Positions 176-42,784 of a stretch of DNA of 64,000 nucleotides are shown one piece after another. The stretch spans positions 80,114 to 144,113 of the forward strand of contig WTHQ01000020.1 of assembly GCA_011523055.1 (NCBI GenBank), given 5' to 3'. A program made the position numbers and the translations under genes. Source of the DNA: Methanobacteriota archaeon (GTDB lineage: Archaea > Thermoplasmatota > Poseidoniia > Poseidoniales > Thalassarchaeaceae). The notes under the pieces were generated by a model. The model was given only the letters and a program-made list of their open reading frames with translations. It had not been told where the DNA came from and did no database searches. Within the stretch, counting starts at the first letter, position 1. Each line of letters opens with the position of its first letter.

Positions 176-577
176 ATGGAGAGTATCTCATTCAGGAATG
201 ATGCTTCCTCAGCATCGGTCCCAAGGAGGATTGCAGCCTCATTCTTCTACCTCTCCCACATTTTCGTCACTATGCTCGTTGGATTAGGTTGGCTCGCTCC
301 GTGGGACATAGTTCTCTGGTCAGTGGTTGTAGTTTACTGTGCGACTGAGATACTCTGGCTCACCCGAGATGGCTATTGCATTCTAACCGATATTGAACGG
401 TGGCTTTTGGGTATCGAGAAACCGAAAAGCGCTCTCCAACAAAATTTCATCCAAAGACTGTTATTGTCATGGACGGGTAAATCTTTCACCCCGCAGAACT
501 CAAGGAATTTGACTGTCATCTGGGGTAGGTTGAGCCTCTCCATATGCATCGTCAGACTCTATTCCCCCTGGTTTTGA
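176..577 (+). CDS. Small hypothetical membrane protein (two predicted TM helices)
   Basis: ATG-initiated 133-aa ORF packed between trxB and the MoeZ-like gene, with a hydrophobic core FFYLSHIFVTMLVGLGWLAPWDIVLWSVVVVYCATEILWL. No recognisable family. Confidence 0.35.
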   Translation: MESISFRNDASSASVPRRIAASFFYLSHIFVTMLVGLGWLAPWDIVLWSVVVVYCATEILWLTRDGYCILTDIERWLLGIEKPKSALQQNFIQRLLLSWTGKSFTPQNSRNLTVIWGRLSLSICIVRLYSPWF

Positions 578-582
578 TAGAA

Positions 583-1665
583 ATGGATGAGAGGAGATTG
601 AATCGATTCGATAGGCATATTGTACTTGATCAAATTGGCTTGTCTGGCCAGATTAAGTTCTCAAAGTCGATCGTGACAGTAATCGGAGCGGGCGGCCTTG
701 GAAGTCCCGCTCTTTTGTACTTGGCAGCTGCTGGAATAGGTGAGATCAGGATTATTGATGATGATGTCGTCGACGTCTCCAACTTACAGAGGCAGGTTCT
801 ACACTCGGAAAGAACAATCGGGTTGAAAAAAGTGACATCAGCGACGGACAGGCTGAAGGAAATTGATTCAAATCTCATGATTAGATTTTTCGAATCCAGA
901 CTGACTCCAGAGAACGCAATTGATTTGATCACAGGATCTGATGTAGTCATAGATGGAACAGATAATTTCCAAGCAAGATACGCAATAAATGACGCCTGTG
1001 AGGAGCTAGGCGTTCCCTGGGTGTTTGCCAGTGTGCTGAGATTTGAGGGTCAAGTCTCAGTCTTCAATTATCAGGGCGGGCCGAATTATCGCGATTTATT
1101 CCCCAGTATACCCCCCCGTGAACTGGCCCCGAATTGTTCTGAGGCAGGAATATTGGGGTCAGTGACCGGAATTATCGGATCCATACAAGCCACTGAGGCA
1201 TTGAAAGTCTTACTGGAAAAGAAGGATGTCCTATCCGGAAGACTATTAATTTTTGATGCCCTCAAAATGGAATCTCGGATTCTGAGGTTCGGTGGGGAAC
1301 AAAGGGGCCCTCCCAGGATCGTTGCAAGTCCGATAATGAACAAGAAAATTACTCCAAAGGAGCTTGAAAGAATGATGCGAGAGGGGGAAGATTTGTTTTT
1401 ATTGGACGTCAGGAGAGAATTCGAGGAGTCAATAGCAAGTATTGAAGGAACATCGATTAGGATCGAGCACCTACAAATCCCCGCAAGAATAGATGAACTA
1501 CCGCGAAATTTACCGATAATAGTGTATTGCCATTCTGGAGTTAGATCTGCTGCGGTGGTCGAATATCTTTCAAAACTTGATGATTTTAGTGGAAGCGTAT
1601 CAAACCTGGAGGGCGGGATCGATAGATGGTCTATCGAAATAGATTCGAATATTCCAAGATATTGA
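583..1665 (+). CDS. ThiF/MoeB-family E1-like adenylyltransferase with C-terminal rhodanese domain (MoeZ/MoeB-like; sulfur-carrier or SAMP activation, molybdopterin/thiolation)
   Basis: Nucleotide-binding motif VIGAGGLGSPALLYLAAAGIGEIRIIDDDVVDVSNLQRQ. C-terminal rhodanese active-site loop YCHSGVRS. Start placed at the internal ATG (MDERRLNRFDRHIVLDQ) matching the usual MoeB N-terminus. Confidence 0.8.
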   Translation: MDERRLNRFDRHIVLDQIGLSGQIKFSKSIVTVIGAGGLGSPALLYLAAAGIGEIRIIDDDVVDVSNLQRQVLHSERTIGLKKVTSATDRLKEIDSNLMIRFFESRLTPENAIDLITGSDVVIDGTDNFQARYAINDACEELGVPWVFASVLRFEGQVSVFNYQGGPNYRDLFPSIPPRELAPNCSEAGILGSVTGIIGSIQATEALKVLLEKKDVLSGRLLIFDALKMESRILRFGGEQRGPPRIVASPIMNKKITPKELERMMREGEDLFLLDVRREFEESIASIEGTSIRIEHLQIPARIDELPRNLPIIVYCHSGVRSAAVVEYLSKLDDFSGSVSNLEGGIDRWSIEIDSNIPRY

Positions 1666-1846
1666 AAAATTATCTATTTATGTAAATAATTTTAATTTAA
1701 TTTTCATTTATTATGTAAAATAAATTTTTTTTTTTTCTTAAAATTATGTAAAATACATTTCAGTACAACATTTTATTAATGTATAAAATTTGTTTTAAAA
1801 TTTTTAATATAAGGTAAATAGAATTAATTTCATCAGAATAATTTAT
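1666..1846 (+). promoter_or_regulatory. Extremely AT-rich (about 85-90% AT) intergenic island with phased TTATGTAAA(A/T) repeats and a T13 tract. Likely terminator of the upstream gene plus promoter/operator array for the downstream fused E1 gene.
   Basis: Core ATGTAAA copies begin at about 1680, 1713 and 1747 (33-34 bp spacing, same helical face). Degenerate copies near 1789 (ATGTATAAAA) and 1845 (ATGTGC). Poly-T at about 1724-1737. Confidence 0.4.
1724..1737 (+). terminator. Oligo-T tract (13 T), candidate archaeal intrinsic terminator about 60 bp downstream of the MoeZ-like gene stop
   Basis: Uninterrupted T run. Archaeal RNAP terminates at oligo-T tracts. Confidence 0.3.
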
Positions 1847-1870
1847 GTGCTTTCTATCTATGCAGAGTTC

Positions 1871-4678
1871 ATGTCCTATGAAATATCAGGCATATGGAGA
1901 TGTCCCAATTGCAATCATCACCAACCTTGGAAATCTAGCAAAAGGGAGCTTAAGGCCTTGGATAGAAAATGCACAAAGTGTTCAGAAAGGACTAGGATAA
2001 TGATTCACAGGTCACCAACTGGCCAAGGCCGCACGTCCCATGCAAAAGTATGGATTAGGGAAAAACATAGTGACTCAGACCTTGAGAGTGAGGCGAGAAG
2101 CAGGAACAATCCATTGCATGAGGGACCCGATGAGTACAGCGGTGATCAATCTGACTTGCCAAAGATTTGGGGTCGAGGGTGGAAGCCCACGGAACATTTG
2201 ACCTTTGATAAGGCGATTAAACCGGATTACGTCATCAATGAAGTTCTGAGGTTCACAGCCGAAAGGTGGGATGGTTACCTGGAATTAATCAGAGATGCTC
2301 TCAAAGAATGCGTCGGTACAAAGTCAATGAACGGTGAGGAATTTCATGAGTGGTCAGAGCTGTTTTGCGATCACGTGCATGAATCATTCGATGACAGGCT
2401 TCATACACCAAAAATCAACAGTATCTTGCTGACTGAAATTATCCCGAAGAGGGATGGTAGACTCTATCTGTCAAGAAGAAGGGATAGGTTGCTGTTAGAC
2501 TTGCGCCTTCTTCTCAGAAGGCTTGCGCACTTGGCTTCAATCACCAAAGAAGAGCGTCTTCATTGGCATAGACTGATGTTGAGGACCAGAGTTTTGGACG
2601 GACATCTAAAGGAGCTTTTCGTTGAGGGAGTCGAAACTCCTGACGGGGGCAATTTTGGAGGGAAGGGTTTCAGATCGACCTGGCAAGAGCCTATCGCTGC
2701 ATGTGGCACAGCACTGCAACTGGGGAATGACGTGGCTGCTCCGATGATCAGGGATCTTGGGCTCGCACTCTCAATGGGGCAGACGCCACTATCAATCATG
2801 TCTGCACAGATGGGTAAGTCTGGATCGCAGATGAATGGCGGCCACCCTAACTTCGGGGGCAGAGACCTACATATCGGAGATTGGAATTATGGCATTCTTC
2901 CACCCACTGCCCCGTTACCCATTGCAAGTGCGACTGCTACGGGAATCGCTCTTGCATCATCAAGAAACGGGAACGGAGTGTTCACACTTGCTCCCGTTGG
3001 GGAGGGTTGCAGTAGCAGCGGGGAGTTTTGGGAAGCGATAAACTTCGCAGGCGCTAGGGGGCTCCCAATATGTTACATCATCCAAAACAATCAGATTGCA
3101 CTTGACACATTCTCAAACAAACAATCAGGGGCAGAGACATTCGGGGATAAGGGAGCTTCGGTTGGGCTTCCGGCTTGGAGCATAGATGGGTCTGACCCAG
3201 CGATCTACTATGCTTCGGTTGCAGTGGCCCGAGAGCTTTCTGTTTCTGGATTTGGGGGCTGCATCATACATGTCGAAACCATGAGGGGTTGTGGCCATGC
3301 GCATCATCACGATGACCTCTATCTTGGTGCAGAAAGTGGCAATCCACCAGGCTACGTCGGACAGGACTTAATCCAGTATTGGTCCAAAAAGGAACCAATC
3401 GAAAATCATGAACGGCTGCTGATAGGAATGGGTGTCAGTGCCAAATTACTGAAGTCAATTGTTGACGAAGAAGTCGCTCTTTGCGGGGAGGCGCGATTGG
3501 CCGTGGAGTCCATGGCTTGGCCCGAGCCGGAGACCGTGGCTGTCGGAACGACAAAGCTGACAGATGCAAGAACGCACGAGCAACAGATCAAGGATCTTGA
3601 GGGCGTCCAAAAACTGGTCGGCCATTCGGACCTGGGGCCAATGGAATTCGATGATGCGGTTAACTCGTGGAGTTTCAGTAGAGCAATTCAGAACGCAATG
3701 GTCAATATCGCGGATAATGATGGGGAAAACGTACTATTCATGGGCGAGGACATGGAAATTGCCGGGGCCTTCGGATTGAATCTCGCCCTCAAGGCCAAAG
3801 GGCACGGTGGGAAACTTCTCGACATGCCATTGTCTGAATCTATCATCATAAACGGAGCAACGGGAGCTGCCTTGGCCGGTCTTCGCCCGATCGCGGAGAT
3901 ACAATTCGGAGGGTTCGCCGCTCTGGCAATGAACGCTTTGGTGAACAATGCCGCTCAACTGAGATGGAGATGGGGGGCCAATGTCCCCCTCACAGTGAGA
4001 ATTCCGTTGGGCGGGAAAACGAGAAGTGGGCCGTATCATGCCAATGTGATAGAATCTTGGTTTCTGAATGACCCAGGGCTTTTGATTGGGTTCCCGTCAA
4101 ATCCCCAAGATGCCTATGATCTACTCATTGAGGGGCATTCGTTGGATGACCCTTTCGTACTCTTGGAACACATTGGATTGTACGGATTGCGTGGGGGCCT
4201 GACTGGTTGGGGAGATCGAATAAGCCAGCGCGTCGACACCGAATCGGTGAGGGAGAGACTGCGACAAGGCATGCACACCATTGGAAAAGCGAGAGTAGTG
4301 AAACGAGGTGGGGATGTCTCAGTGATAACTTGGGGTGCAATGGTTCACGTTGCCATGAATGCCGCCAGAGTGCTTTCCAAGGAGGGGATCGATGTAGAGG
4401 TAATTGACCTCAGGACCCTGAATCCACTGGATAGGGGCACATGCGTACAATCTGTCAAAAAGACCGGTCGCATGATCGTTCTACAAGAATCGCAATGGAC
4501 TGGCGGCTTCGGGCACACGATATCATCTGCAGTGCTCGAAGGGTCGTTTTGGTCACTAGAGGCCCCGCCGATTGTAATCGGGGCCCTCGACGTGCCGGTT
4601 CCTTTCTCCCCTCCTCTGGAGGACCACACCATACCTGATGTGGATCTCCTTTCCCAGCATGTCAGGAGATTGGTGTGA
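1871..4678 (+). CDS. Fused E1 alpha-beta component of a TPP-dependent 2-oxoacid (pyruvate/branched-chain/acetoin-type) dehydrogenase, with an approx. 230-aa N-terminal extension carrying a C4 zinc ribbon
   Basis: E1-alpha TPP motif GEGCSSSGEFWEAINFAGARGLPICYIIQNNQ (GDG-x-NN type). E1-beta transketolase-like region MEIAGAFGLNLALKAKG...AEIQFGGFAALAMNALVNNAAQLRWRWG. N-terminus MSYEISGIWRCPNCNHHQPWKSSKRELKALDRKCTKCSE. Open reading frame continuous from GTG 1847; first ATG at 1871. Confidence 0.75.
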   Translation: MSYEISGIWRCPNCNHHQPWKSSKRELKALDRKCTKCSERTRIMIHRSPTGQGRTSHAKVWIREKHSDSDLESEARSRNNPLHEGPDEYSGDQSDLPKIWGRGWKPTEHLTFDKAIKPDYVINEVLRFTAERWDGYLELIRDALKECVGTKSMNGEEFHEWSELFCDHVHESFDDRLHTPKINSILLTEIIPKRDGRLYLSRRRDRLLLDLRLLLRRLAHLASITKEERLHWHRLMLRTRVLDGHLKELFVEGVETPDGGNFGGKGFRSTWQEPIAACGTALQLGNDVAAPMIRDLGLALSMGQTPLSIMSAQMGKSGSQMNGGHPNFGGRDLHIGDWNYGILPPTAPLPIASATATGIALASSRNGNGVFTLAPVGEGCSSSGEFWEAINFAGARGLPICYIIQNNQIALDTFSNKQSGAETFGDKGASVGLPAWSIDGSDPAIYYASVAVARELSVSGFGGCIIHVETMRGCGHAHHHDDLYLGAESGNPPGYVGQDLIQYWSKKEPIENHERLLIGMGVSAKLLKSIVDEEVALCGEARLAVESMAWPEPETVAVGTTKLTDARTHEQQIKDLEGVQKLVGHSDLGPMEFDDAVNSWSFSRAIQNAMVNIADNDGENVLFMGEDMEIAGAFGLNLALKAKGHGGKLLDMPLSESIIINGATGAALAGLRPIAEIQFGGFAALAMNALVNNAAQLRWRWGANVPLTVRIPLGGKTRSGPYHANVIESWFLNDPGLLIGFPSNPQDAYDLLIEGHSLDDPFVLLEHIGLYGLRGGLTGWGDRISQRVDTESVRERLRQGMHTIGKARVVKRGGDVSVITWGAMVHVAMNAARVLSKEGIDVEVIDLRTLNPLDRGTCVQSVKKTGRMIVLQESQWTGGFGHTISSAVLEGSFWSLEAPPIVIGALDVPVPFSPPLEDHTIPDVDLLSQHVRRLV

Positions 4679-4709: not shown

Positions 4710-5687
4710 ATGACATCAGAACTACGGGGGGTCATGCTCGCAGGACTTCCTGATGGGGTCCTGTTGATAATCGGCTTGTTATTGCTGGTTTTGGGGGGCG
4801 AGCTGGTCGTTCAGGGCTCTATCAGGATTGCCGGCTTACTTGGGATGCCATCGTTCTTGGTGGGCTTCACCCTGGTTGCGATAGGGACGAGTCTACCTGA
4901 GCTCGGAGTCGTCTTGAACGCCATCAATCGTGAGAGTCTTGAGGCTGTGGACCTGGCTGTAGGGGGAGTCATAGGATCCAACATCGCCAACATCATGCTC
5001 GTGTTGGCAATCGCTATGTTGATCGGGGCAGCTTCTCAGCCAGACAAGGACCTCAAGCAGGATGCCTTGATGCTACTCATCGCTACTGCATTCATCGTGA
5101 TATCGGTCGTCATCGGGGAGTTCTCACTCTTGCTGGGAATTCTGTCGATCGCTACAATGGGAGGCTACTATGCCTACATCTTCAGGACAAGGGGGGGCGA
5201 AGATCAGGGAGAATTGGAGGACTCATGGGTGCCCCAAGGCTACTCCTACGCAATAATTTCATTTTTGCTTGGCCTTCTGTTGGTGAAATATGGGTCTGAC
5301 TTCCTGATCGAGGGAGGGGTCGGGCTGGCTGTGTCATTAGGTGTTTCAGAGGCCGTCATCGGGCTTACTCTCGTAGCATTTGGAACATCGTTGCCAGAAT
5401 TAGCGGTGACGTTGACGGCCTCGATTCGCGGGGTCCAGGGCGTAGCAATAGGGAACATACTAGGATCCAATGTTGCCAACGTGATGGCGGTACTGGGAAT
5501 CGGTTCAATCGTATCCCAGGGTTTGACTGTTTCGAGTTCTTTTCTGACATTGGACATCTGGGTGCTCCTGGGAAGCTCTGGATTAATCGGCCTCTCAATC
5601 CTTACAGGAAAGGGCATATCCAAGCCAATGGGCGCATTCTTGTTGGTTGGGTACCTAGTATACGTCGCTATGTTGTTCATAGGATAG
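4710..5687 (+). CDS. Ca2+/cation antiporter (CaCA/YrbG family) membrane protein
   Basis: Two alpha-repeat signatures GTSLPELGVVLNA and GTSLPELAVTLTAS, with GSNIANIMLVLAI/GSNVANVMAVLGI. About 10 TM helices. ORF opens at 4638 overlapping the E1 3' end; ATG 4710 chosen. Confidence 0.75.
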   Translation: MTSELRGVMLAGLPDGVLLIIGLLLLVLGGELVVQGSIRIAGLLGMPSFLVGFTLVAIGTSLPELGVVLNAINRESLEAVDLAVGGVIGSNIANIMLVLAIAMLIGAASQPDKDLKQDALMLLIATAFIVISVVIGEFSLLLGILSIATMGGYYAYIFRTRGGEDQGELEDSWVPQGYSYAIISFLLGLLLVKYGSDFLIEGGVGLAVSLGVSEAVIGLTLVAFGTSLPELAVTLTASIRGVQGVAIGNILGSNVANVMAVLGIGSIVSQGLTVSSSFLTLDIWVLLGSSGLIGLSILTGKGISKPMGAFLLVGYLVYVAMLFIG

Positions 5688-5694
5688 TTTTGGT

Positions 5695-6291
5695 ATGATC
5701 GACGAGGGCGTCCCAGACTGTCTGATACTTGCATCAGGCCTCAGCAGAAGACTAGGCTACGACAAAGCAACTATCCAATTGGGTGAAACGACACTCTTGT
5801 CAGCCATGATTGAAACCATGAAGGATCATGGAATGAAGACTTGCGTCGTGATTGGTCCGACTTCAGACGAAGCGGGGAGCAGTGACTCTGTGATTTTCGT
5901 CAGAAACGAGAATCCGGATCATGGGAGGACTGGGTCAATACAGGTTGGGTTAGAGGCTCTCGGTTGGCCCGAGAGGGTGATTGTGGCCCCGGTTGACAGA
6001 CCAGGATTTAGCTCAAGGACGCTAAAGAGGCTTTTTTCTGCCGATTCGAGTGCCAGCCCAGAGAAACAGGGCCGAGGGGGCCATCCGGTTTTTTTGGACG
6101 ATGAGGGAGTCATGGCCGTCAGGGATGCTCATCCAGACTCACCGTTGAATTCTCTCATTGACTTTTCCCGCTTCGAGGTCGATGATCCATATTTACACCT
6201 GAATGTGGACACCTCAGAGGACGTCATGTCCTTGAAGATGGCATGGGACGAAATATCAGACTCATGGAAAGTCAACCCCAACCCAGAGTAA
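5695..6291 (+). CDS. MobA/MocA-like molybdenum-cofactor nucleotidyltransferase (likely molybdopterin cytidylyltransferase for an MCD cofactor)
   Basis: N-terminal LILASGLSRRLGYDKA NTP-transferase motif, about 190 aa, sits next to XdhC and an XDH-family enzyme. Confidence 0.6.
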   Translation: MIDEGVPDCLILASGLSRRLGYDKATIQLGETTLLSAMIETMKDHGMKTCVVIGPTSDEAGSSDSVIFVRNENPDHGRTGSIQVGLEALGWPERVIVAPVDRPGFSSRTLKRLFSADSSASPEKQGRGGHPVFLDDEGVMAVRDAHPDSPLNSLIDFSRFEVDDPYLHLNVDTSEDVMSLKMAWDEISDSWKVNPNPE

Positions 6292-7467
6292 TAATAGCCC
6301 ACAAATAAGTCCGGGCAACAGGGTGTGAACAGTGGCCCATAGTGAGGCGGTGCGATGACGTACCAAAAGTGGGAACAGGGCATCTCCGTCCTGAGAGATG
6401 GCATTCGCAACCAATGCCGGGAAGGAAAGAATTCCTTCAACGTAGGCAGTTATTGCAATGATTTGGGGCCCACACCCTGGAATTAGGCCGATGGTTGCAG
6501 CTACTGCTATTGCCCCAGGCCCGTCTCCATTGGTGGCTAGGTCGGATTCAGTCGCCCCAGTTGAAAGCAATAATCCCTCAAAGACCAGGTAGGCTGCTAG
6601 GACCCACGTCGTGACAAAGGCCGTCTCCGATGCGGCGTGGGTCAGCGTTTCATCAAACGAGTGAAGCTTGTCCCCAATAGTTGCCTCAGTGTCATCTGCG
6701 ATGAAGCTCTTCCCTGCGATGTACAATACCAAAGACAGTATCGTGCCAGCCACCCCCACAACAGTGAGAATTCCATCTCTTGTGGACAAATCCCATGACA
6801 GCTCAGGATTGTAACTAGGTTCCCTGGCCAACCAAAATATGAGTAGTACCCCAAGGATGAAGCCGACCATAGTGACTAGCCACCATAACTTGTACCCACT
6901 ATGGACTATCTTGTAGGACAGAGTGCCTGGTTCCTCCCTCGGTAAATTGGAGATGATGTCAGTCATCTCCTTTTTCTCACTCCGGTCCTCTAATGTTTGA
7001 ATCGCCAGATTTCGTTGTGTAATTTTGGGCTTCATTCCGAAGGGGCTTTCAGGTGTGATCATCAACAAATCAGCCCCATAGCCCCAGATCACCCCAGCTA
7101 GGAATGAAATTAGGTGAACGAGGATCACTGGGGCGAGGAATTGATTGTCTTGAATCGCTGCCCCGAACAAAACAAAGGCAGAATCCCCCAGGGTGGCAAT
7201 CAGGGTCGCCAATACAGTCCCGTAGGTGACATAGCCCTTCGCGAACATCGGCATCATGATGATTGCTCCACCGCAACCGGGAATCACGCCCATTAGTGCT
7301 CCGATGAGTGGTTGCCATCTCTTACTCGACCTGATCCAATCAACGAACTTTCCAGCGGTAAGGTACTGTAGCCAGCTGAAGAGGAGGACCATGACGGCGA
7401 CGAACACCGTGACGGCAAGAAACGCATCACGCATTGCAACCAGAATCGTCTCCAGCAGTGGGTTCAC
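6262..7467 (-). CDS. Polytopic membrane protein with two internal repeats, each carrying a conserved IPGCG motif. Permease/transporter of unknown substrate.
   Basis: 401-aa ORF, about 10 TM helices. Motifs GVIPGCGGAIIMMPMF and GLIPGCGPQIIAITAYVEG sit in the N- and C-terminal halves. Located inside the Mo-cofactor/XDH locus. Confidence 0.55.
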   Translation of the reverse strand: MNPLLETILVAMRDAFLAVTVFVAVMVLLFSWLQYLTAGKFVDWIRSSKRWQPLIGALMGVIPGCGGAIIMMPMFAKGYVTYGTVLATLIATLGDSAFVLFGAAIQDNQFLAPVILVHLISFLAGVIWGYGADLLMITPESPFGMKPKITQRNLAIQTLEDRSEKKEMTDIISNLPREEPGTLSYKIVHSGYKLWWLVTMVGFILGVLLIFWLAREPSYNPELSWDLSTRDGILTVVGVAGTILSLVLYIAGKSFIADDTEATIGDKLHSFDETLTHAASETAFVTTWVLAAYLVFEGLLLSTGATESDLATNGDGPGAIAVAATIGLIPGCGPQIIAITAYVEGILSFPALVANAISQDGDALFPLLVRHRTASLWATVHTLLPGLICGLLLLWVGVDFP

Positions 7468-7493
7468 GGTTGTTACAAAAGGCTGGAAGACTT

Positions 7494-8360
7494 ATGACTT
7501 CCCAATGGCTGCAGGAGAAAAAGTGCAAGAGCACCGACGCGGAGATGTTTTTTTTGGGATCAATGACTCTGAGGTGGGCGTTGCACCAATTGGATTTATG
7601 CAATACCGTAGCCATGGCCTCAATAATTGACTCGGATGGTAGCGTCCCTGCCAAAGTGGGGGCGAAATTGGCATTTTCCACCTCTGGAGACAGACATGGC
7701 ACAGTCGGAGGAGCCGGTCTGGAACTCAAAATCGAACACAGACTGAGATCGATACTCAATGGTTCCGAGGGGGGAATTGAGACCTTCGTCCTCTCCAAGT
7801 CATCTAGTGATCCTTCCACCACCAACCTAAACAGCCTCTGTGGTGGCCGGGTGACTGTGGCATTCGAGAGGTTGGATCCAAGCCCCCATATTCTACTGAT
7901 GGGTGGCGGCCACGTTGCAAAAGCCATCAGCGAGGCATGTGAACTCTTGGGATGGCGACATAGCGTCTTTGATGAACGTGGGGAATACGCGTCCTCAGAG
8001 TCATTCCCCGCCTCAGTAGAAAGAATCCATGCCAGCGCAGATGAGTTCCTTGAAATTGAGACTGCCACGTCACTCTCACGGTTTTCCGATATTCTCCTGC
8101 TCGGCCATGACTGGGCGATAGATCAGAAGCTGTTGATTGGGCTGCTGTCATATTCCGAGGATATTCCATGTAGGATAGGGTGCATAGGATCAAAGACCAA
8201 GTGGAGAGAATTCACAAAGTCAGCGAAAGGAGAGGGAGTTTCAGACGATCGTTTGGGTTTGGTCAGATGCCCAATCGGCGCCCCGATAGGAGCTGTGACC
8301 GTGGAGGAGATAGCATTCGCTGTCTGTGGCGAGATCATCTCGCTCATCAGGACCTCGTGA
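7494..8360 (+). CDS. XdhC/CoxI-family accessory protein (Mo-cofactor insertion/maturation for XDH-family enzymes)
   Basis: N-terminal XdhC_CoxI-like segment VAMASIIDSDGSVPAKVGAKLAFSTSGDRHGTVGGAGLE. Rossmann-like XdhC_C LLMGGGHVAKAISEACELLGWRHSVFDER. First ATG at 7494; the listed ORF start 7434 is TTG. Confidence 0.7.
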   Translation: MTSQWLQEKKCKSTDAEMFFLGSMTLRWALHQLDLCNTVAMASIIDSDGSVPAKVGAKLAFSTSGDRHGTVGGAGLELKIEHRLRSILNGSEGGIETFVLSKSSSDPSTTNLNSLCGGRVTVAFERLDPSPHILLMGGGHVAKAISEACELLGWRHSVFDERGEYASSESFPASVERIHASADEFLEIETATSLSRFSDILLLGHDWAIDQKLLIGLLSYSEDIPCRIGCIGSKTKWREFTKSAKGEGVSDDRLGLVRCPIGAPIGAVTVEEIAFAVCGEIISLIRTS

Positions 8361-8398
8361 CTAATCCGCTTCAAGCGCCACCTTCAATTTCATAACCA

Positions 8399-9067
8399 AT
8401 GGCAATGCAACAAACACTCGTGCGTAGGGTTAGGCTTAGGTGGAGTCGCTCAGACTTAGAAGGGGTAGCAGAGTTCAAACAGTTGATGGATGCTGTAAGA
8501 AAATACGAGGTGCTTGCCCACATGAAGCTGGGTGAAGAGGGTATCGAGCATCTCGCTGAGATAATCCCTGTGAAAGGTGAGTTGAGCGCAATGGATGACA
8601 TTCCAACTTTCGATGTGCTGGAAGTCCATGAGAAGGATGATGACTCTGGCTCATACCTAGTCTCTGTGAATCTTACACATTCCCTCCCGATGATGATGTT
8701 AGACCTGGAAAAAATACACTTACATCCGCCATATGGTTTAGACGAAGATGGACTCGAATTGAATTTTACTGGCCGATCAGACTCAATGAAGCGTCTCATT
8801 GAATTGCTGAGGATGATGATGCCCTGGGATTCGATCAGCATACAATCCGTCAGGAGCAATGTAGGCGACATGTGGCGAGGGATATTGACCGACCGACAAA
8901 TAGAAGTTCTTCGCCAGGCTGTAAATCTAGGGTACTACTCAGACGAGAGAGGGATCAAGATAAAAGATCTCGCAGAAAGTATGGGGATGGCAAGGTCCAC
9001 GATGGGGGGGCATCTCAAACTGATAGAACAATCTGTGATGTCAAAGGTGGTTGACGACTTAGGCTGA
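8399..9067 (+). CDS. Archaeal transcription regulator with C-terminal bat-type HTH_10 domain
   Basis: C-terminal LTDRQIEVLRQAVNLGYYSDERGIKIKDLAESMGMARSTMGGHLKLIEQ matches the bacterio-opsin activator HTH_10 pattern. Immediately upstream of the CoxSLM-like genes. Confidence 0.7.
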   Translation: MAMQQTLVRRVRLRWSRSDLEGVAEFKQLMDAVRKYEVLAHMKLGEEGIEHLAEIIPVKGELSAMDDIPTFDVLEVHEKDDDSGSYLVSVNLTHSLPMMMLDLEKIHLHPPYGLDEDGLELNFTGRSDSMKRLIELLRMMMPWDSISIQSVRSNVGDMWRGILTDRQIEVLRQAVNLGYYSDERGIKIKDLAESMGMARSTMGGHLKLIEQSVMSKVVDDLG

Positions 9068-9108
9068 CTAGCCCTAAGTCTCTTACACCTAGCAACAAGT
9101 CGAGGAAC

Positions 9109-9675
9109 ATGGCCCCGCAACCTCTGCCTTTGGCGGACGACGCCCCAGTGGCTGTTTGGAGTGCGGTAGTGAACGGTAATCCTGTCCGTGCGATCATAAA
9201 GAGTCATGATGTTCTGCTCGATGTAATCAGAGACGGAATCGGGTCACTAGGGACCAAGAGAGGGTGCGACATGGGAACCTGTGGCTGCTGCACTGTTATG
9301 ATTGATGGCAAACCAAGACTATCTTGTCTGACTCTTGCGATGGAGGCAAAAAACCACCAAATCACCACGGTGGAGGGTCTCTCCGACGGACATTATCTAC
9401 ATCCAATCCAAGATATGTTTGCCGAATGTGGTGGAAGTCAATGTGGATTTTGTACTCCGGGGTTTCTCGTTGCCAGTGCAGCGTTGTTGGATGGAAACCC
9501 AACACCAACAAGAGAGGAGGCCATGCAAGCCATAGAGGGTAACCTATGCAGATGCACGGGATACCAGCAAATTATCGATTCAATAATGAGCGCATCCAAG
9601 ATACTTTCTGAGGGGTCGCAGATTCAGGCCACCACCGAGCCAGCTAGCGATCCCCACCCGAATTCCAGGGGCTGA
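9109..9675 (+). CDS. [2Fe-2S] small subunit of xanthine dehydrogenase/aldehyde oxidase/CoxS family
   Basis: Plant-type ferredoxin motif CDMGTCGCCTV and second cluster motif CGFCTPGF...NLCRCTGYQQI. Confidence 0.85.
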   Translation: MAPQPLPLADDAPVAVWSAVVNGNPVRAIIKSHDVLLDVIRDGIGSLGTKRGCDMGTCGCCTVMIDGKPRLSCLTLAMEAKNHQITTVEGLSDGHYLHPIQDMFAECGGSQCGFCTPGFLVASAALLDGNPTPTREEAMQAIEGNLCRCTGYQQIIDSIMSASKILSEGSQIQATTEPASDPHPNSRG

Positions 9676-9679
9676 GCTA

Positions 9680-12454
9680 ATGTCGAAGGACAAGGAGATA
9701 GTCGGATATCGCCAACAGCCAGGCAAACTTGACTTTACTAGGCCAGGATCGGGTGGTTCCTCCCCCCTCTCAGAGGACAGGGACCCGGAAATGATTCCTG
9801 CGAGCCAAGGGGGGGAATTAGAGCAACCATGGGGCGCCCATCGTCATGACAACCTGGTCACAGGCAGGGTTATTGGGAAGAGGACGCCCTTGATTGACGG
9901 CAAGTGGAAGGTGACGGGGCAGGCCATTTACGGTGACGATGTCAGATTGCCGGGCGAGATAATCGGCCGCTTGGTGAGGACTGATCGCCATTACGCAAAA
10001 GTTCTCTCGATTGATATGACTGAGGCCGAGTCCATTCCGGGCGTTATCGCAACGGCGACGGGGGTAGACGCCCCATCCGCCTTTGGAGTCTTACCTGTTA
10101 CTAAGGACGAGCATGCAATGGCACTGGAGAAAGTGAGGCATATTGGAGACATTGTTGCATGCGTGGCTGCAGTTGACGAAGAGACCGCCAGGCTAGCGGC
10201 CAGCAAGGTCCAAGTGGAATACGAAGGGCTTGAACCGATTTTCGACATGAGGGACGGGTTGAAGAATTCGACAGACCCGATCCACGATAGAGGAAAATAC
10301 CACATTGGGGAGTCCAATGTTCAGAAAAGAGTGTTCCAGAGGTTCGGAAGAATATCCGACTTGGAGAAATCAATGGCCTCGTATGATGATGATTGGACAT
10401 TTAAGGGCGTGAATCATGGGTTTACAGAGCCACATGCGGTGGTGGCCCACTGGGATCCTAGGGGCCGTCTCACCCTCTACACCCCTCAGCAAGTTCCACA
10501 TTACGTTCATAGGGCTCTAGCAGATGTTTTGGAAATTCCAATGCACCAGATAAACGTCCACAGGACCTATGTGGGAGGTGGCTTCGGAGGGAAGTCCGAC
10601 CCATTCCCTCACGAGATGTGCGCAGCTATACTAGCGAGGAAGAGCGGTAGACCCGTTAGAATCACGTTTGATAGGGAAGAGGTTTTCTGGACAAACAGAG
10701 GACGTCACCCTTCCAGGATTTCAATGTCGATCCATGCTGATGATAAAGGGAGATTAAGCGGGATAGAAACTGACGCGTTGATCGATGGAGGCGGTTTCGC
10801 CTCGTTCGGTCATGTGACCACTTACTACAACGGGGTTCTCCATACCGCACCCTACGAGATAGGGGCATTCCATTACACTGGAGCAAGGGTCTGGACAAAC
10901 AAACCCGCCAGCGGGGCCATGAGAGGGCATGGGGCAGTAAACTCAAGGTGTGCAGTGGAAGTTGGGATTGACCACATCTCCGAAGAGATGGACGTGGACC
11001 CAATTGATCTCAGGCTCGCAAACCTCCTTCCGCCCAATTCAGCAACGATAACCGGTTTCAGGATAACTTCAATCGGAATGAGAGAGTGTCTTGAGAAGGT
11101 TCGCAGACAATCTGGATGGGACGAAAAGTTCAGGAAAATGCCTCTAGGCAAGGGAATTGGGGTAGGCTGTGGCTTCTTTATTTCTGGTAGTGGCCTACCG
11201 ATACACTGGGATCCCAACAAGTTTCCTCATGCCACCGTCCATCTGAAGATTGACATGGATGGGGGGGTTACAGTTCATACCGGTGCGGCTGACATTGGGC
11301 AGGGCTCCGACACTGTTGTTGGACAAGCGGTGGCCGAGGTCCTTGGCCTTCCTATGGACATGATAAGGATCAGGTCGAAAGAGTCAGACACATCTCCGGT
11401 CGATCTTGGTTCTTACTCCAGCAGAGTCACCTTCATGAACGCAAATGCAGCTGTCTCCGCTGCCATGGAAATAAGGTCCAACCTTATCGATGCTGCGTCC
11501 GAACTGACAGGCGTGGAGAGGGCTGACCTGGTTCTCGGAGATAGGCGAATATTCAACAAGAAGGATCCGGGCGTGGGAGTTTCCTACCTCGAAGCATTGC
11601 ACAAGGCACAGGAAGACAAAGGTGCTCTGATAGCCTCTGGGTCTTACAGAACGCCGCCCATGGGGAAAATGCACAAGGGCGCTGCTGCCGGATTGGCTCC
11701 TGCCTACTCCTTCTCTGCTTATGTCGCAGAGGTGGATGTCGATGTCGAGACAGGGAAAATCAAGGTAGAAAAAGTATGGGCAGCACATGATTGCGGAAAG
11801 GCTCTGAACCCACTCTCAGTTGAAGGGCAGATTATCGGATCATGCCACATGGGGCTGGGACAAGTCATATCCGAGGAGATGAAATACGGAAGAACTGGGA
11901 ACCTTCTGAACCCAGACCTCCTCGGCTACAAGATCCCGACGGTCCATGAAATGCCGGAGGTCGTCCCTATAATCGTAGAGTCAAATGATCCAGAAGGGCC
12001 ATTTGGAGCCAAGGAGGCGGGCGAAGGGCCCCTGTTGCCAATCCTCCCCGCGGTTTGCAATGCTGTCTACGACGCCATTGGAGTGAGGGTAAATGAGTTG
12101 CCACTCACCCCTGACAGATTGCACAGGGCAATAGAAAGGACCTGTAAGCATAAGGGGGTCAAAGATCCACGAGATCTCCCCAATCCATCTCTTCAGAAGG
12201 GGGCTTTGTCCGATGTGCTGATTGCACGGGCCGAGGTTCACTCAGAGAGAGACAAACAGAGAAGATTGAATCCAAATCCAGAGGCATACTTCAACGGGCA
12301 ACTATTCAACCATCTTACTACAGGGCCCCCGGAAGAGCATGATCCTGAATGGACTATTCAGGTTCTGCCAGACGAGGAGTATCTGAACAACCCGAAACTG
12401 GCTGGCAGCGCTTGGCTTCACAAGGAAAGAAGGCACATGGAGGAGTCTGGATGA
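9680..12454 (+). CDS. Molybdopterin-binding large subunit of an XDH/CoxL-family hydroxylase (substrate unknown; not a canonical CO dehydrogenase), with N- and C-terminal extensions
   Basis: YVGGGFGGK Mo-binding signature. Active-site loop reads TNKPASGAMRGHGAVNSRC, which is A-x-R-G-x-G type and lacks the AYRCSFR Cys motif of form-I CODH. 924 aa versus about 780-800 typical; approx. 150-aa unique C-terminal tail. Confidence 0.85.
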   Translation: MSKDKEIVGYRQQPGKLDFTRPGSGGSSPLSEDRDPEMIPASQGGELEQPWGAHRHDNLVTGRVIGKRTPLIDGKWKVTGQAIYGDDVRLPGEIIGRLVRTDRHYAKVLSIDMTEAESIPGVIATATGVDAPSAFGVLPVTKDEHAMALEKVRHIGDIVACVAAVDEETARLAASKVQVEYEGLEPIFDMRDGLKNSTDPIHDRGKYHIGESNVQKRVFQRFGRISDLEKSMASYDDDWTFKGVNHGFTEPHAVVAHWDPRGRLTLYTPQQVPHYVHRALADVLEIPMHQINVHRTYVGGGFGGKSDPFPHEMCAAILARKSGRPVRITFDREEVFWTNRGRHPSRISMSIHADDKGRLSGIETDALIDGGGFASFGHVTTYYNGVLHTAPYEIGAFHYTGARVWTNKPASGAMRGHGAVNSRCAVEVGIDHISEEMDVDPIDLRLANLLPPNSATITGFRITSIGMRECLEKVRRQSGWDEKFRKMPLGKGIGVGCGFFISGSGLPIHWDPNKFPHATVHLKIDMDGGVTVHTGAADIGQGSDTVVGQAVAEVLGLPMDMIRIRSKESDTSPVDLGSYSSRVTFMNANAAVSAAMEIRSNLIDAASELTGVERADLVLGDRRIFNKKDPGVGVSYLEALHKAQEDKGALIASGSYRTPPMGKMHKGAAAGLAPAYSFSAYVAEVDVDVETGKIKVEKVWAAHDCGKALNPLSVEGQIIGSCHMGLGQVISEEMKYGRTGNLLNPDLLGYKIPTVHEMPEVVPIIVESNDPEGPFGAKEAGEGPLLPILPAVCNAVYDAIGVRVNELPLTPDRLHRAIERTCKHKGVKDPRDLPNPSLQKGALSDVLIARAEVHSERDKQRRLNPNPEAYFNGQLFNHLTTGPPEEHDPEWTIQVLPDEEYLNNPKLAGSAWLHKERRHMEESG

Positions 12455-13455
12455 AGACCCCGGCATTTGAACTCCACATACCCACCACTTTGAAGGAGGC
12501 CCTGGGCATAGCCAGAGAATTGCATGAAAGGGGGCATGACTTTGACTGGATATCCGGGGGGACTGACCTAATTCCAAATTACAAGTGGGGAATCAACCCT
12601 CGACCTCATGTCATATCAATTTCAGGAGTTGATGAACTCAAGGGAATCTCCCCCACCAGGATTGGGGCGATGGCGAGATTGCAGGATATCGTGGAATCAC
12701 CGGTTGCGCACCCACTGATTGTTGAGGCGGCTGGGACGATTGCGAGTATAATGATCCGCAGGTCAGGGACACTTGGAGGGAACCTTTGCCTAGATACTAG
12801 GTGCTTCTGGCTCAACCAATCAGAGACATGGAGGAAGTCGATAGATTACTGTCACAAATGCGATGCGGGGACGGGTGCGGATTGCAGAGTGATCCCAAAC
12901 CAGAATGAGCTCTGTGTTGCGACCTACCAGGGAGATCTAGCACCTGCACTGATGTGCCTGGACGCAAGTGTTCACCTAGCCTCCCATAGGGGTACTCGGA
13001 GCATGCCGCTTGAGGACTTCTTCCAAGAAGACGGCATCACAAGAAACGTACTACAACAGGGAGAGATAGTCACACACGTCGAGATTCCAAAGGGTTCTAC
13101 GAGCGTAGTCGGGTCCTACCAGAAACTTCGTCATCGAGAGGCGTGGGATTTCCCAGAGGGGGGTGTCGCCTTCTCGGTATCACTCTCTGATGACGGCACC
13201 CCTGTTTCATTCAACATGGCTAGCACAGGGTTTGAGAGCATTCCTCGCAAGCATCACGATTTGGTTGAAACTATCTCAAAGGGTCCTGATTGGGCCGTGG
13301 AAGCAGAACGACTTGGGGTAGAACTCAAGAGAGCGGTCCGGCCCGTGCTAAACACGTGGTTCCCCCCAGCATATCGAAAGAAAATGGCCTCAGTGTTGGC
13401 CAGAAGAGCCATGGAAGAAGCCTCAAAAAGACTTACTTCGGCTTGGCAGTCATAG
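12451..13455 (+). CDS. FAD-binding medium subunit (CoxM/XdhB-like) of the XDH-family enzyme
   Basis: MKTPAFELHIPTTLKEALGIARELHERGHDFDWISGGTDLIPNYKW is a FAD-binding molybdopterin-dehydrogenase signature. Its ATG overlaps the CoxL stop in an ATGA arrangement (12451-12454). Confidence 0.8.
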   Translation: MKTPAFELHIPTTLKEALGIARELHERGHDFDWISGGTDLIPNYKWGINPRPHVISISGVDELKGISPTRIGAMARLQDIVESPVAHPLIVEAAGTIASIMIRRSGTLGGNLCLDTRCFWLNQSETWRKSIDYCHKCDAGTGADCRVIPNQNELCVATYQGDLAPALMCLDASVHLASHRGTRSMPLEDFFQEDGITRNVLQQGEIVTHVEIPKGSTSVVGSYQKLRHREAWDFPEGGVAFSVSLSDDGTPVSFNMASTGFESIPRKHHDLVETISKGPDWAVEAERLGVELKRAVRPVLNTWFPPAYRKKMASVLARRAMEEASKRLTSAWQS

Positions 13456-14351: not shown

Positions 14352-14439
14352 ATTCTCCTGCGTTTTCTAAAATGTGATTTCAACCCTCCTTCAGCAACCT
14401 ATAACACCTCGGGAATGCCCCAGACTTCTGTCGGCCTCC

Positions 14440-16089
14440 ATGGGGGGGCCTCAGTGGGCGGGGAATATGGCCAAAACAGACTCTGATACCGAGCGGTTCA
14501 ACAGAATCGTTGTTTGGTCACTCGGAGCCACTGCGGTCTTGCTACTGATCCTGCCTATGTTCTTCGTGTTGTCCAATGTGACCTACTACTCTGCCTATGT
14601 GGATAGTGGTGACACTGACGAGGAGAAATTCGCTCAGCTCTCAACAATGAGGTCTACACTAATGGAAGATTTGGACAGGGGAAATGGGGATGTCTCATTG
14701 GGATATGACGTCGCCAATACCATCTCAACCCCGATGCTCGTCAATGACTGGAGGGACCCCCACAGAAGCATGCTAGTGATAGTGGGGCCCGAGAAGCCGA
14801 TTGACCAGACTGAGGCACGGTCTATCCATGACTTCGTAACTAAATCAGGTGGGAAGGTGATCGTCGCTGCCGAAAACTCGAATGCCAACGAGCTGGCTTC
14901 CCTATTCGGAGTGACTTTTTTTGATGACCCCCTACACGACGAAAACCAACATTTCCTGATATACAACGAAGATGGAGAGCCCTACGCCCCATCATGGAGG
15001 AACGTTTGGTCTGCTGCCTCAGTTAGCCAGGACGTTGAATCCATGCAGCCTGCTTACCTCAGCCAAGTATGCACAGACGATCAAATCAGGAACAACCTCA
15101 TGACAAATTGCAGGCTCCCCCTGATGTTCAGATCCCCGACAGGAATGAAGTTTGAACCGACCAACATGGACCAGTCAGACCCTGAACATAGAACCGTGAA
15201 GATACTAGCCAAAGCTTCCTCAGGAGCGTTCATCGACGTCGCAGGCACTGGCGACGCTGGTGACTACAGAAACCCTGCCCCCGGGGACTTGGCCCTTGTC
15301 ATACGTGTGGACTACCCTGTGAAAGCATATGACAAGCCGCAAGAAAGTCAAGGTGGTTTCGCCGGCACCTCGGAGGTTGCCGAGGTTGACGTCACTGGAA
15401 GCATTACGTTCGTTGCAGATGATGAGGCATTCTCGAACATGCTATGGGATCTGCAACAAGCCCAAACCCAAGGAATAAGGTCAAACTGCGATACTGTGAA
15501 CTCCTGTTGGCTGGACGTCCTGCCCGAGGGGCAGTGGAATGGAAACTCAATGTATTTTTCAGCTTTGATTTTCGATATGATGGAACACAGGAACCCTGAT
15601 CTCTCATCCACATTCAGGGACGATAAATCACAATATCAGGTTGTTTTTGATGAAAGCAGACACTCCACAGGAAGATTATCCGCGCCCTTTGTCGAGACGA
15701 TGGGGACCGTGGTTCTTCTGACCTCTAACCCATTCTTGAAATGGCTCGTGGTCCTAAATGTCGGATTATTGCTTCTGGTGTCTATGATGGTTGTGCCGCA
15801 GAAGGAGAATTGGAGGCACGTGTTTGACCTGACCAGGTTCAAAGAAAGGCCTGGAAAGCTAGATCCCTCGACCTACAGAGAAAGGGTCCAACAGGCATTG
15901 TTCACCAAGGTGAGGGTTCACTATGATTTGACAAGAGACCAGTTAGCCCTCAAGCCCCCGTCCGAGGTTCAGGACATGATCAATGACCCCAAGCTAGTAG
16001 AATTGGCATACAGCCAATCTCGCGTTTACCATTCCCAAGAATTGCGACAATTGATGATCGCTATTCGTAAATGGGGGAAGCAAAACTGA
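14440..16089 (+). CDS. Membrane-anchored protein of the MoxR/DUF58 module (N- and C-terminal TM helices, large extracytoplasmic domain)
   Basis: N-terminal TM IVVWSLGATAVLLLILPMFFVL and C-terminal TM VVLLTSNPFLKWLVVLNVGLLLLVSMMVV. Sits directly upstream of MoxR. Alternative ATG at 14467. Confidence 0.55.
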   Translation: MGGPQWAGNMAKTDSDTERFNRIVVWSLGATAVLLLILPMFFVLSNVTYYSAYVDSGDTDEEKFAQLSTMRSTLMEDLDRGNGDVSLGYDVANTISTPMLVNDWRDPHRSMLVIVGPEKPIDQTEARSIHDFVTKSGGKVIVAAENSNANELASLFGVTFFDDPLHDENQHFLIYNEDGEPYAPSWRNVWSAASVSQDVESMQPAYLSQVCTDDQIRNNLMTNCRLPLMFRSPTGMKFEPTNMDQSDPEHRTVKILAKASSGAFIDVAGTGDAGDYRNPAPGDLALVIRVDYPVKAYDKPQESQGGFAGTSEVAEVDVTGSITFVADDEAFSNMLWDLQQAQTQGIRSNCDTVNSCWLDVLPEGQWNGNSMYFSALIFDMMEHRNPDLSSTFRDDKSQYQVVFDESRHSTGRLSAPFVETMGTVVLLTSNPFLKWLVVLNVGLLLLVSMMVVPQKENWRHVFDLTRFKERPGKLDPSTYRERVQQALFTKVRVHYDLTRDQLALKPPSEVQDMINDPKLVELAYSQSRVYHSQELRQLMIAIRKWGKQN

Positions 16090-16107
16090 AAAACAGGAGC
16101 GAATGAA

Positions 16108-17172: not shown

Positions 17173-17229
17173 ATTTCAACCTAATTGTGGACAGGAGGGA
17201 TTGCACTGGCGTGGAGCAGAAAGTCAGCG

Positions 17230-20572: not shown

Positions 20573-20574
20573 TG

Positions 20575-22367: not shown

Positions 22368-22373
22368 GGGCTA

Positions 22374-29456: not shown

Positions 29457-29523
29457 AGTTTTCGAATTGGCAGGTACTTCATCAAACCGTTGGCTTATTT
29501 TTTGGAAACCCCGTTGAAGATAT

Positions 29524-29608
29524 TGGTGCAGGGGACAGGATTCGAACCTGCGAAGCACTACGCACTGGGACCTAAACCCAGCCCCTTTGACCGCTCGGGA
29601 ACCCCTGC
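29524..29608 (-). tRNA. tRNA-Leu (anticodon UAG), type II with long variable arm, CCA encoded
   Basis: Reverse complement GCAGGGGUUCCCGAGCGGUCAAAGGGGCUGGGUUUAGGUCCCAG...GCAGGUUCGAAUCCUGUCCCCUGCACCA. Acceptor GCAGGGG/CCCCUGC, anticodon loop UUUAGGU, T-loop UUCGAAU. Confidence 0.8.
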
Positions 29609-29828
29609 TTGAGCCATGGGGCGTCACCGTCTATATTTTACAATGCCGAGGGGTGAAATCTAGCACTATCCATACTTTTGGAGATTCAAACCTTGTCCTT
29701 TGCACTACCAGAGCGATTATTTTCACAACTTGGCACTTACGTCCAGCAGCTTTTCCGCCCCTGTAGTTGGAAATCTCCCATCAAGGTCATAACGGATTCG
29801 TGCCGGCGGGAGGAAATAGGGTGGTCCG

Positions 29829-42683: not shown

Positions 42684-42784
42684 ATCTCTATTTCTCCTAG
42701 CCTGGGCTGCGCTGCGCATGGCTTGGGGGAGTAGCAATGGTCTCTTATTATTTGCCGCCGGATGGACGTTGAAACGGCCTGACG

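Follow-up and report, generated by a model that had tools for sequence, protein, structure and literature searches.

The closest described relatives of the protein analyzed here are the heterotetrameric (alpha2beta2) E1 components of pyruvate and branched-chain 2-oxoacid dehydrogenase complexes, exemplified by the E1p of Geobacillus stearothermophilus (PDB entries 1W85 and 3DUF) and the E1b of Thermus thermophilus (1UM9). Another group is KEGG K11381 (bkdA, fused 2-oxoisovalerate dehydrogenase E1), in which the alpha and beta parts form one polypeptide; these proteins are typically bacterial and about 650-800 amino acids (aa) long. Furthermore, a canonical complex operon is found in archaea, e.g., in SIMO Bin 19-2, a metagenome-assembled genome (MAG) of the Poseidoniales, the genes 137-142 of which are lipB, lpdA, E2, E1beta, E1alpha, and lipA (Damashek et al. 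2021, supplement, PMC9723583). We analyzed a stretch of 64,000 nucleotides (nt), called the window throughout, from a Methanobacteriota archaeon of the Thalassarchaeaceae, Poseidoniales (assembly GCA_011523055.1, contig WTHQ01000020.1, positions 80,114 to 144,113). It contains a fused E1alpha-E1beta gene with a long N-terminal extension. With modest confidence, we favor the view that this gene encodes a divergent lipoyl-dependent E1, which would serve as a second substrate input to the canonical E2/E3, and that its N-terminal extension consists of two layers.

The encoded protein has the same three domains as the heterotetrameric E1s, and the Glu that activates the cofactor and the two His residues of the active site are common to both; a putative thiamine diphosphate (ThDP) motif is also present. 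In contrast to them, it is a single alpha-beta chain, carries an N-terminal extension of about 230 aa, contains GEG instead of GDG, and has insertions of 9 aa in the alpha active-site loop and of 19 aa in the beta part; moreover, no E2 and E3 genes share an operon with the fused gene. The single polypeptide is a trait in common with K11381, for the members of which neither a Zn-ribbon nor a helical N-terminal extension was described in the literature searched. K11381 has been assigned automatically to the SIMO Bin 19-2 orthologue, and JGI calls relatives '2-oxoisovalerate dehydrogenase E1 component'; automatic annotation is all that stands behind a branched-chain specificity of the window protein. 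The canonical archaeal operon (MG2_0836-0840) encodes an E1 of the same superfamily in the same genomes, and probably supplies E2/E3 and lipoylation. However, its E1 is split, of ordinary length, and encoded within the operon, whereas the fused gene is located at an unrelated, fixed locus.

An earlier note on this DNA, made from the sequence alone, had described one chain of 930-940 aa that contains both an E1-alpha and an E1-beta module. This was borne out, as the predicted protein has 935 aa and matched three Pfam domains together, i.e., E1_dh with 102.2 bits (gathering cut-off 22), Transket_pyr with 66.0 bits (cut-off 27), and Transketolase_C with 114.6 bits (cut-off 25.9). The domain set of an alpha/beta-type E1 was thus found on one chain, with all three domains above threshold. 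In contrast, the scores stayed far below the NCBIfam cut-offs for pyruvate dehydrogenase (PDH) E1 families, with 112.8 versus 411 for TIGR03181, 84.2 versus 394 for TIGR03182, 193.3 versus 321 for PRK09212, and 185.1 versus 454 for PRK11892. Judged from its sequence, the gene should not be named pyruvate dehydrogenase E1.

The catalytic residues were identified by alignment to the G. stearothermophilus E1p, with residue numbers of the window protein counted from ATG 1871. In the alignment to 1W85_A, D173alpha corresponds to E378 of the GEG motif, N202alpha to N407, and H271alpha to H476, while D180alpha and E183alpha align with E385 and E388 (1W85/3DUF), and E59beta and H128beta align with E656 and H723, respectively (1W85_B/3DUF_B). 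E378, N407, H476, E656, and H723 were invariant in 61 aligned orthologues. The roles of E59beta, H271alpha, and H128beta have been described; H128beta is conserved across all known E1s and is required for the reductive acetylation of lipoate, whereas non-E1 ThDP enzymes have Gln or Asn at this position (Pei et al. 2008, PMC2663715). Compared with the classical pattern G-D-G-x(24-27)-N-N, the window protein has G-E-G-x27-N-N. At this putative metal-binding motif, GEG was seen 81 times and GDG not once in the 82 loci searched, and the exchange of GDG for GEG is a conservative one. The full-chain AlphaFold2 model had a predicted local distance difference test score (pLDDT) of 74 and a predicted template modelling score (pTM) of 0.78. 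Its beta part could be superimposed on the G. stearothermophilus E1beta with a template modelling (TM) score of 0.88, at a sequence identity of 35-36%. The motif GLYGLRGGxTGWG of the insertion in the beta part is nearly invariant among the orthologues and is also present in a protein (P0326) of the Zn-less sister clade described below. A new metal site at the HAHHHDD sequence was considered but rejected, since in the alignment this stretch coincides with the active-site/phosphorylation loop of classical E1alpha; we take it to be comparable to the GHHSTSDD loop of branched-chain 2-oxoacid dehydrogenase (BCKDH).

The longest open reading frame (ORF) at this site extends on the plus strand from GTG 1847 to the stop codon at 4676-4678 and would encode 943 aa. 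It is uninterrupted in the window and in 78 of 80 GTDB loci; the remaining two end at a contig edge. Several observations indicate that translation does not start at GTG 1847. Of 75 loci (the window plus 74 orthologues), 71 have an ATG at the aligned start position, at least 19 orthologous loci have an in-frame stop codon no more than seven codons upstream of it, and a G-rich element is retained 7-10 nt ahead of ATG 1871 across the orthologues. In addition, conservation is lacking in the eight codons that separate GTG 1847 from ATG 1871, even when the closest relatives are compared. The spacing between the start and the GIW motif was identical in 58 of 76 cases. Therefore, ATG 1871 is the predicted translation start, and GTG 1847 as well as internal Met codons were rejected. 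The start at ATG 1871, for which the earlier note had proposed a check by alignment, was upheld over GTG 1847, while the downstream start at MNGEEFHEW that it had also considered was ruled out, as this Met lies within the conserved helical module and conservation continues upstream of it. The region upstream of the gene is AT-rich. In the window, 1667-1870 had a GC content of 0.19-0.20 in 200-nt windows, and the 150 nt upstream of the ATG had a mean GC content of 27% in the same 75 loci. In these loci, blocks were retained near -59, near -36 (GAAyAwwT), and at -10 to -7 (G-rich) relative to the ATG, which look like an archaeal promoter and a Shine-Dalgarno-like element. A search with Rfam revealed neither a thiamine pyrophosphate riboswitch nor another known leader RNA upstream of the gene; only two tRNAs were matched in the window. 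The features of the locus are compiled in the table.

Table. Features of the fused E1 gene and its direct neighbors in the window
Feature	Position (nt)	Strand	Basis or remark
ThiF/MoeB-like adenylyltransferase with rhodanese domain	544..1665	+	Pfam ThiF and Rhodanese
AT-rich intergenic and 5' region	1667..1870	+	GC about 0.19-0.34; promoter-like elements; contains GTG 1847
Complete coding sequence, fused E1alpha-E1beta with N-terminal extension (predicted start)	1871..4678	+	935 aa plus stop
Predicted Zn-ribbon module (aa 1-80) with low-confidence linker to aa 93	1871..2149	+	clade-specific add-on
Helical module (aa 94-223), motifs LPxIWGxxWxP and FxAER(H/W)DG(H/Y)L	2150..2539	+	runs into first E1alpha helix
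E1alpha (ThDP/PP-binding) core	2540..3526	+	Pfam E1_dh aa 282-548
GGKGFRSTWQE motif, E1alpha core	2657-2689	+	sequence
Putative ThDP-Mg motif GEG-x27-NN	2999-3091	+	aa 377-407; alignment to 1W85_A
E1alpha active-site loop GCGHAHHHDDLYLG	3287-3328	+	exact motif in 78 of 82 loci searched
Alpha-beta linker	3527..3670	+	pLDDT <50 for aa 553-589; variable in alignment
E1beta pyrimidine-binding domain	3671..4183	+	Pfam Transket_pyr
Cofactor-activating Glu, motif PLSE	3827-3838	+	alignment to 1W85_B/3DUF_B
Lipoate-acylation His, motif GPYHAN	4028-4045	+	alignment to 1W85_B/3DUF_B
Insertion of ~19 aa versus Geobacillus E1beta, motif GLYGLRGGxTGWG	4175..4282	+	gap opposite 3DUF_B
E1beta C-terminal domain (Transketolase_C)	4283..4645	+	Pfam, 115 bits
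Na+/Ca2+ exchanger family gene	4710..5687	+	Pfam Na_Ca_ex; start from gene calls on identical DNA

For the first ~231 residues of the protein, no match to a Pfam, NCBIfam, PHROGs, or PDB sequence family was obtained. The extension opens with MSYEISGIWRCPNC-x19-CTKC, with CPNC at aa 11-14 and CTKC at aa 34-37, and thus with Cys residues at 11, 14, 34, and 37. The CPNC-x19-CTKC pattern at the front of an extension of about 230 aa, which the earlier note had read as a zinc ribbon, was confirmed, and the four Cys were found to be invariant in the orthologues. Matches of this region to Pfam Zn-ribbon models remained below threshold, and the zinc site is a predicted one. An AlphaFold2 model of residues 1-232 (pLDDT 82, pTM 0.74), the parts of which agreed with the full-chain model, comprised four predicted parts, i.e., a beta Zn ribbon (5-63), a helix (68-79), a low-confidence linker (~80-100 or more), and a helical bundle (118-223). 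In the Zn-ribbon module, with its beta strands within aa 5-63 and its helix 68-79, the pLDDT was about 56-88, and strands were predicted at 5-10, 17-22, 29-33, and 40-44. The pLDDT of the helical bundle was mostly 75-96.

The extension is widespread and conserved. The window protein has more than 100 homologues, each about 950 aa long, with an identity of 58-82% over 99-100% of the length, including the extension; the labels of homologous proteins place the organism in the Poseidoniales (Marine Group II). A profile of the extension matched in at least 168 GTDB species genomes. The 80 best-matching loci (L011-L090) of these 168 genomes were fetched. Nearly all of these best 80 were labelled Poseidoniales, Thalassarchaeaceae, or unclassified marine archaea, while two were labelled Neomarinimicrobiota and were probably mis-binned. 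The Zn ribbon was present in all 80 fetched genomes. In the 61 aligned orthologues, the invariant positions comprised the four Cys, seven Arg residues in the ribbon, and numerous residues in the helical part. The median dN/dS values of 161 pairs were 0.09 for the Zn module, 0.25 for the linker, 0.11 for the helical module, and 0.04 for the E1 core. Conservation and dN/dS together argue that the N-terminal extension is translated and constrained.

The earlier note had regarded the extension as AT-richer than the rest of the gene and had suggested a recent domain accretion or gene fusion. A windowed GC analysis verified the difference: the extension has 45.6% GC and the E1 core 52.9%. Among coding windows of 669 nt from the other genes of the stretch, no more than 1.5% were as low in GC as the extension. 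However, the gap resides mainly in codon positions 1 and 2 (44% versus 51-53%), and a GC dip, with a mean of 4 percentage points, was repeated in 95% of 76 orthologues. It thus reflects the amino acid composition rather than a recent acquisition. Arg, Lys, Glu, Ser, and Leu characterize the extension, while the core is rich in Gly, Ala, and Pro. It therefore seems scarcely credible that the extension arose by a recent fusion or as a foreign insertion, or that it is an untranslated leader and translation begins at the E1alpha core. The low GC content would fit such a view, as would the result of one gene caller, which placed the start of this gene, on identical DNA, at Met 44 in the numbering from ATG 1871 (P0001, 892 aa). 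Nevertheless, the reading frame, the four Cys, and many further residues are retained across orthologues of about 60% overall identity, and the dN/dS values of 0.09-0.11, the recurrent GC dip, and the ATG at the aligned position in nearly all loci also contradict it. Of the proposed recent accretion, the accretion of a Zn ribbon stood, because a sister clade and bacterial relatives lack the ribbon, while the recent date did not, in view of its presence in 80 of 80 genomes, the dN/dS of 0.09, and the recurrent GC dip. The extension is, by these sequence-based measures, old and under purifying selection.

When a profile was searched against 1.84 billion representative proteins, only 120 matches were obtained, and they revealed that the extension is modular. 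A second set of E1 proteins contains the profile positions ~100-230, corresponding to the helical module, but lacks the ribbon. A ribbon-less query led to a sister clade within the Poseidoniales (loci L091 and L092; proteins P0252-P0260 and P0326), one member of which was labelled Poseidoniaceae. The proteins of this clade open with MxQGxxPxIxGxxWxP, which corresponds to residue ~94 of the window protein, and tblastn detected no Zn module in the L091 and L092 loci. The sister clade occupies the same locus, with riboflavin genes, a thioredoxin-reductase-like gene, ThiF-rhodanese, E1, Na/Ca exchanger, MobA-like, and XdhC genes, and has extra response-regulator and major facilitator superfamily genes upstream, between ThiF and E1. 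Many sister-clade copies in long-read assemblies apparently are frameshifted fragments. A genuine alpha/beta split in this clade was rejected, because the respective contigs are full of other broken genes and P0256 and P0326 read through.

The nearest non-archaeal relatives are bacterial E1alpha proteins of about 450 aa, which are 34-39% identical to the window protein. They include proteins labelled Planctomycetota (P0322, P0323) and proteins of high-GC bacteria (P0324, P0325), and have the motifs GGKGF(R/K)S..QE, PMIRDLG, and GHA(H/F)HD..YL in common with the archaeal protein; two of them also contain GEG. They differ in being split instead of fused and in lacking the Zn ribbon. Their N-terminal extension of about 110 aa has no Cys pairs and is collinear with the helical module (profile-profile alignment of 104 columns, E 2.8e-4, probability 41%). 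In one of them, FVLERHPFAL resembles FTAERWDGYL of the window protein. The inspected bacterial contigs (L093-L095, with P0323 and P0324) carry the divergent E1alpha genes without E2/E3 nearby, and one E1alpha gene, which has no adjacent E1beta, adjoins a gene for a sulfite-oxidase-like molybdoenzyme. The helical module thus seems to be a long-standing character of the divergent E1alpha subfamily, to which bacterial members also belong. As the sister clade and the outgroup are devoid of the Zn module, a gain of the ribbon and linker (aa 1-93) in one clade of the Poseidoniales is more parsimonious than a loss. This anatomy of the extension, which would have been assembled in two steps, is new.

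Outside of the fused E1, the only other home of the Zn-ribbon module in our searches was on small circular elements. A free-standing form of the ribbon (positions 5-90) was found in very basic proteins, which have lengths of about 100-180 aa and the motif GIWxCxxC...W...LDRxCxxCxxRxR...RGR...RP.YMP..AL..E...RN. The contigs that encode them are mutual circular permutations with terminal overlaps, and the units have sizes of about 4.6-5.9 kb. One unit of 4,642 bp and 59% GC (L005-L008) was present in at least 17 contigs from several samples, which were more than 99.8% identical, and contains Dam and C5 DNA methylase genes. Two contigs represent a unit of 4,767 bp with 50% GC (L009, L010). A Tara Oceans element of about 5.9 kb with 43% GC (L096, L097) consists of two related 2.9-kb halves. 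Besides the ribbon homologue, and the methylases in one case, the elements have only small ORFs without a Pfam match, and a comparison of their proteins with PHROGs gave no match. Searches with the free-standing Zn-ribbon proteins against INPHARED phages and PLSDB plasmids (tblastn) and scans of IMG/VR did not yield anything significant. The circular elements may be uncharacterised small plasmids or viruses, and this location of the module suggests a nucleic-acid-binding property.

Next, the context of E2 and E3 was considered. In agreement with the earlier note, a Pfam scan of the ~40 longer ORFs (at least 150 aa) of the 64 kb did not detect E2 (2-oxoacid_dh, Biotin_lipoyl), E3, or lipoylation genes. 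The E2 and E3 genes expected in the same operon as an alpha/beta-type E1 were thus missing at this locus and in the flanks of the orthologous loci examined. The claim that the gene is an orphan was not supported at the genome level. The published MAG SIMO Bin 19-2 contains, in addition to the lipB-lpdA-E2-E1beta-E1alpha-lipA operon, the genes of which are the equivalents of MG2_0820 and MG2_0836-0840, a fused 'bkdA' (gene 1141, K11381, MG2_0557), which is followed by a Na/Ca exchanger and for which a few transcripts were found (PMC9723583). This order of fused E1 and Na/Ca exchanger matches the arrangement in the window. On the basis of this annotation of a related Poseidoniales MAG, which lists both the fused gene and the canonical operon, we regard the fused gene as a second E1, a paralogue present in genomes that also encode E2, E3, and lipoylation enzymes. 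The earlier note had named a canonical E2/E3 operon elsewhere that pairs with the gene as an argument against its view; an operon elsewhere is indeed present in the related MAG, and the finding extends to this half of the argument only. Literature searches on the Marine Group II 2-oxoacid/oxoisovalerate dehydrogenase, on K11381, and on fused archaeal E1 did not reveal a description of the protein.

How could such a second E1 work? Two fused chains would be the equivalent of the classical alpha2beta2 tetramer. The fused E1 most likely binds ThDP-Mg2+ and decarboxylates a 2-oxoacid, and the acyl group would then be handed to the lipoyl group on the E2 of the canonical lipB-E3-E2-E1beta-E1alpha-lipA operon, so that the fused E1 would be a second substrate-input module for the same E2/E3. 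The invariant equivalent of H128beta and the superposition of the E1beta part favor a true lipoyl-dependent E1. Several points weigh against this proposal. The Mg-binding Asp of the classical GDG is replaced by Glu, and the sub-cut-off NCBIfam scores imply that substrate and partner cannot be transferred by homology. Neither the window nor the flanks of about 10 kb of the orthologous loci examined (L001-L004, L091, and L092) contain an E2, E3, or lipoylation gene, and the two bacterial relatives inspected also have no neighboring E2/E3, one of them not even an adjacent E1beta. The presence of E2/E3 is taken from the published annotation of a related MAG, and the canonical operon has its own split E1. 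Some of these points also fit an E2-independent ThDP enzyme, similar to the stand-alone enzyme considered in the earlier note, i.e., a 2-oxoacid decarboxylase, a carboligase, or an oxidoreductase with another acceptor, in which the N-terminal helical module would replace complex assembly in a subfamily that comprises divergent fused and bacterial split members. The lack of adjacent E2/E3 in all archaeal and bacterial members examined, the great divergence from the curated PDH E1 families, the family-specific insertions, an N-terminal domain without an assigned role, and a canonical operon that is already supplied with an E1 would all be in accord with it. However, the lipoate-acylation His is invariant, although Gln or Asn would be expected in a non-E1 ThDP enzyme; the E1beta C-terminal domain, which is the E2 dock in classical E1s, is fully retained; and the annotated MAG with the gene also has E2, E3, LipA, and LipB. 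Taken together, we regard an E2-independent enzyme as a serious but rather doubtful alternative to a lipoyl-dependent E1.

The role of the Zn ribbon can be weighed separately. Its Arg-rich conserved surface could bind nucleic acid or another anionic partner and thereby tether or regulate the enzyme, which is speculative. In a more specific version, which is compatible with either catalytic scenario, the ribbon would have a nucleic-acid-binding role, e.g., in autoregulation via its own mRNA or promoter or in DNA/RNA tethering, after its acquisition from a small mobile element. The seven invariant Arg around the C4 site agree with this idea, as do the very basic free-standing homologues on small circles, in one case beside genes for Dam and C5 DNA methylases, the absence of the module from the outgroup and the sister clade, which favors a gain, and the best BFVD fold matches, which were two unnamed viral proteins (E 2e-3 and 6e-3). 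Nevertheless, we consider it unlikely, because the module did not match characterised nucleic-acid-binding Zn-ribbon families, its net charge in the window protein is only about +5, Zn ribbons often mediate protein contacts as well, and a transfer between E1 and the circular elements may have occurred in either direction. It is similarly improbable that both alternatives apply together, such that the protein would represent a separate E1-like ThDP class outside the classical complex, never encoded with E2/E3, of which one archaeal clade captured a nucleic-acid-binding ribbon from tiny circles. If true, a separate class with a captured ribbon would link an enzyme of central metabolism to DNA/RNA or to an element-derived regulator.

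The gene order around the fused E1 is highly conserved. ThiF-rhodanese was found upstream in 72 of 72 loci with sufficient room, directly adjacent in the Zn-ribbon clade, and a Na/Ca exchanger is the next downstream gene in 74 of 74 loci with room. An overlap of the antiporter gene with the 3' end of the E1 gene, as described in the earlier note, would require a start of the former at ATG 4638. On identical DNA, gene callers begin at 4710, i.e., 31 nt past the E1 stop, and the median gap in the orthologues was +40 nt. The ThiF-E1-exchanger order most likely represents a general synteny of this archaeal order rather than a functional operon, while co-transcription of E1 with the antiporter is possible.

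The regions further away contain several additional features. The regions 5695-13455 and 544-1665 form a molybdenum cofactor (MoCo)-related neighborhood, with a MobA-like nucleotidyltransferase, XdhC, an HTH_10 regulator, and the MoeB/ThiF-rhodanese; 5695-13455 also encodes a three-subunit hydroxylase similar to xanthine dehydrogenase/CO dehydrogenase (2Fe-2S, MoCo-binding, and FAD subunits). A conserved triad of a DUF4350-like protein, a MoxR-type AAA+ ATPase, and a DUF58 protein follows in this order at 14374-18525 (+). An archaeal-type shikimate cluster is located at 19481-23165 (-), comprising chorismate synthase, a GHMP-family kinase, 3-dehydroquinate synthase II, and a DeoC/LacD-family aldolase. 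The longest ORF at 27375-29627 (-) has 750 aa and covers a tRNA-Leu on the same strand (29524-29608), and its real start must be located further downstream because of this overlap. Two giant ORFs are located at 36264-42809 (-) and 56063-60763 (+). One has 2181 aa and FG-GAP repeats; the second has 1566 aa, subtilase and CARDB domains, and a C-terminal Zn-ribbon match below threshold. Both proteins are probably secreted or located at the cell surface, as is typical of Marine Group II archaea that degrade proteins. An aconitase gene (43390-46131, -) is also present, as are the genes for a two-subunit 2-oxoacid:ferredoxin oxidoreductase (47261-49111 and 49108-50142, +); the latter pair indicates that the organism also has a ferredoxin-dependent route of 2-oxoacid oxidation.

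Marine Group II archaea are uncultured, although few archaea are more abundant in ocean surface waters, and their carbon metabolism has been deduced from annotation alone. The gene described here, which is automatically labelled branched-chain or pyruvate dehydrogenase E1 and occurs at a fixed locus in at least 168 species genomes, is, as far as its sequence tells, an ancient, divergent fused E1 that is widespread in the Poseidoniales. As a divergent paralogue, it carries two additional domains and occurs beside a canonical complex. Metabolic reconstructions that take it as 'the' PDH or BCKDH E1 may err. Furthermore, the free-standing homologues reveal a group of tiny DNA circles in metagenomes, including marine ones, without a counterpart in the searched collections of phages and plasmids or in IMG/VR. 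Lastly, the two-layered extension would be a clean natural example of stepwise domain accretion on a metabolic enzyme.

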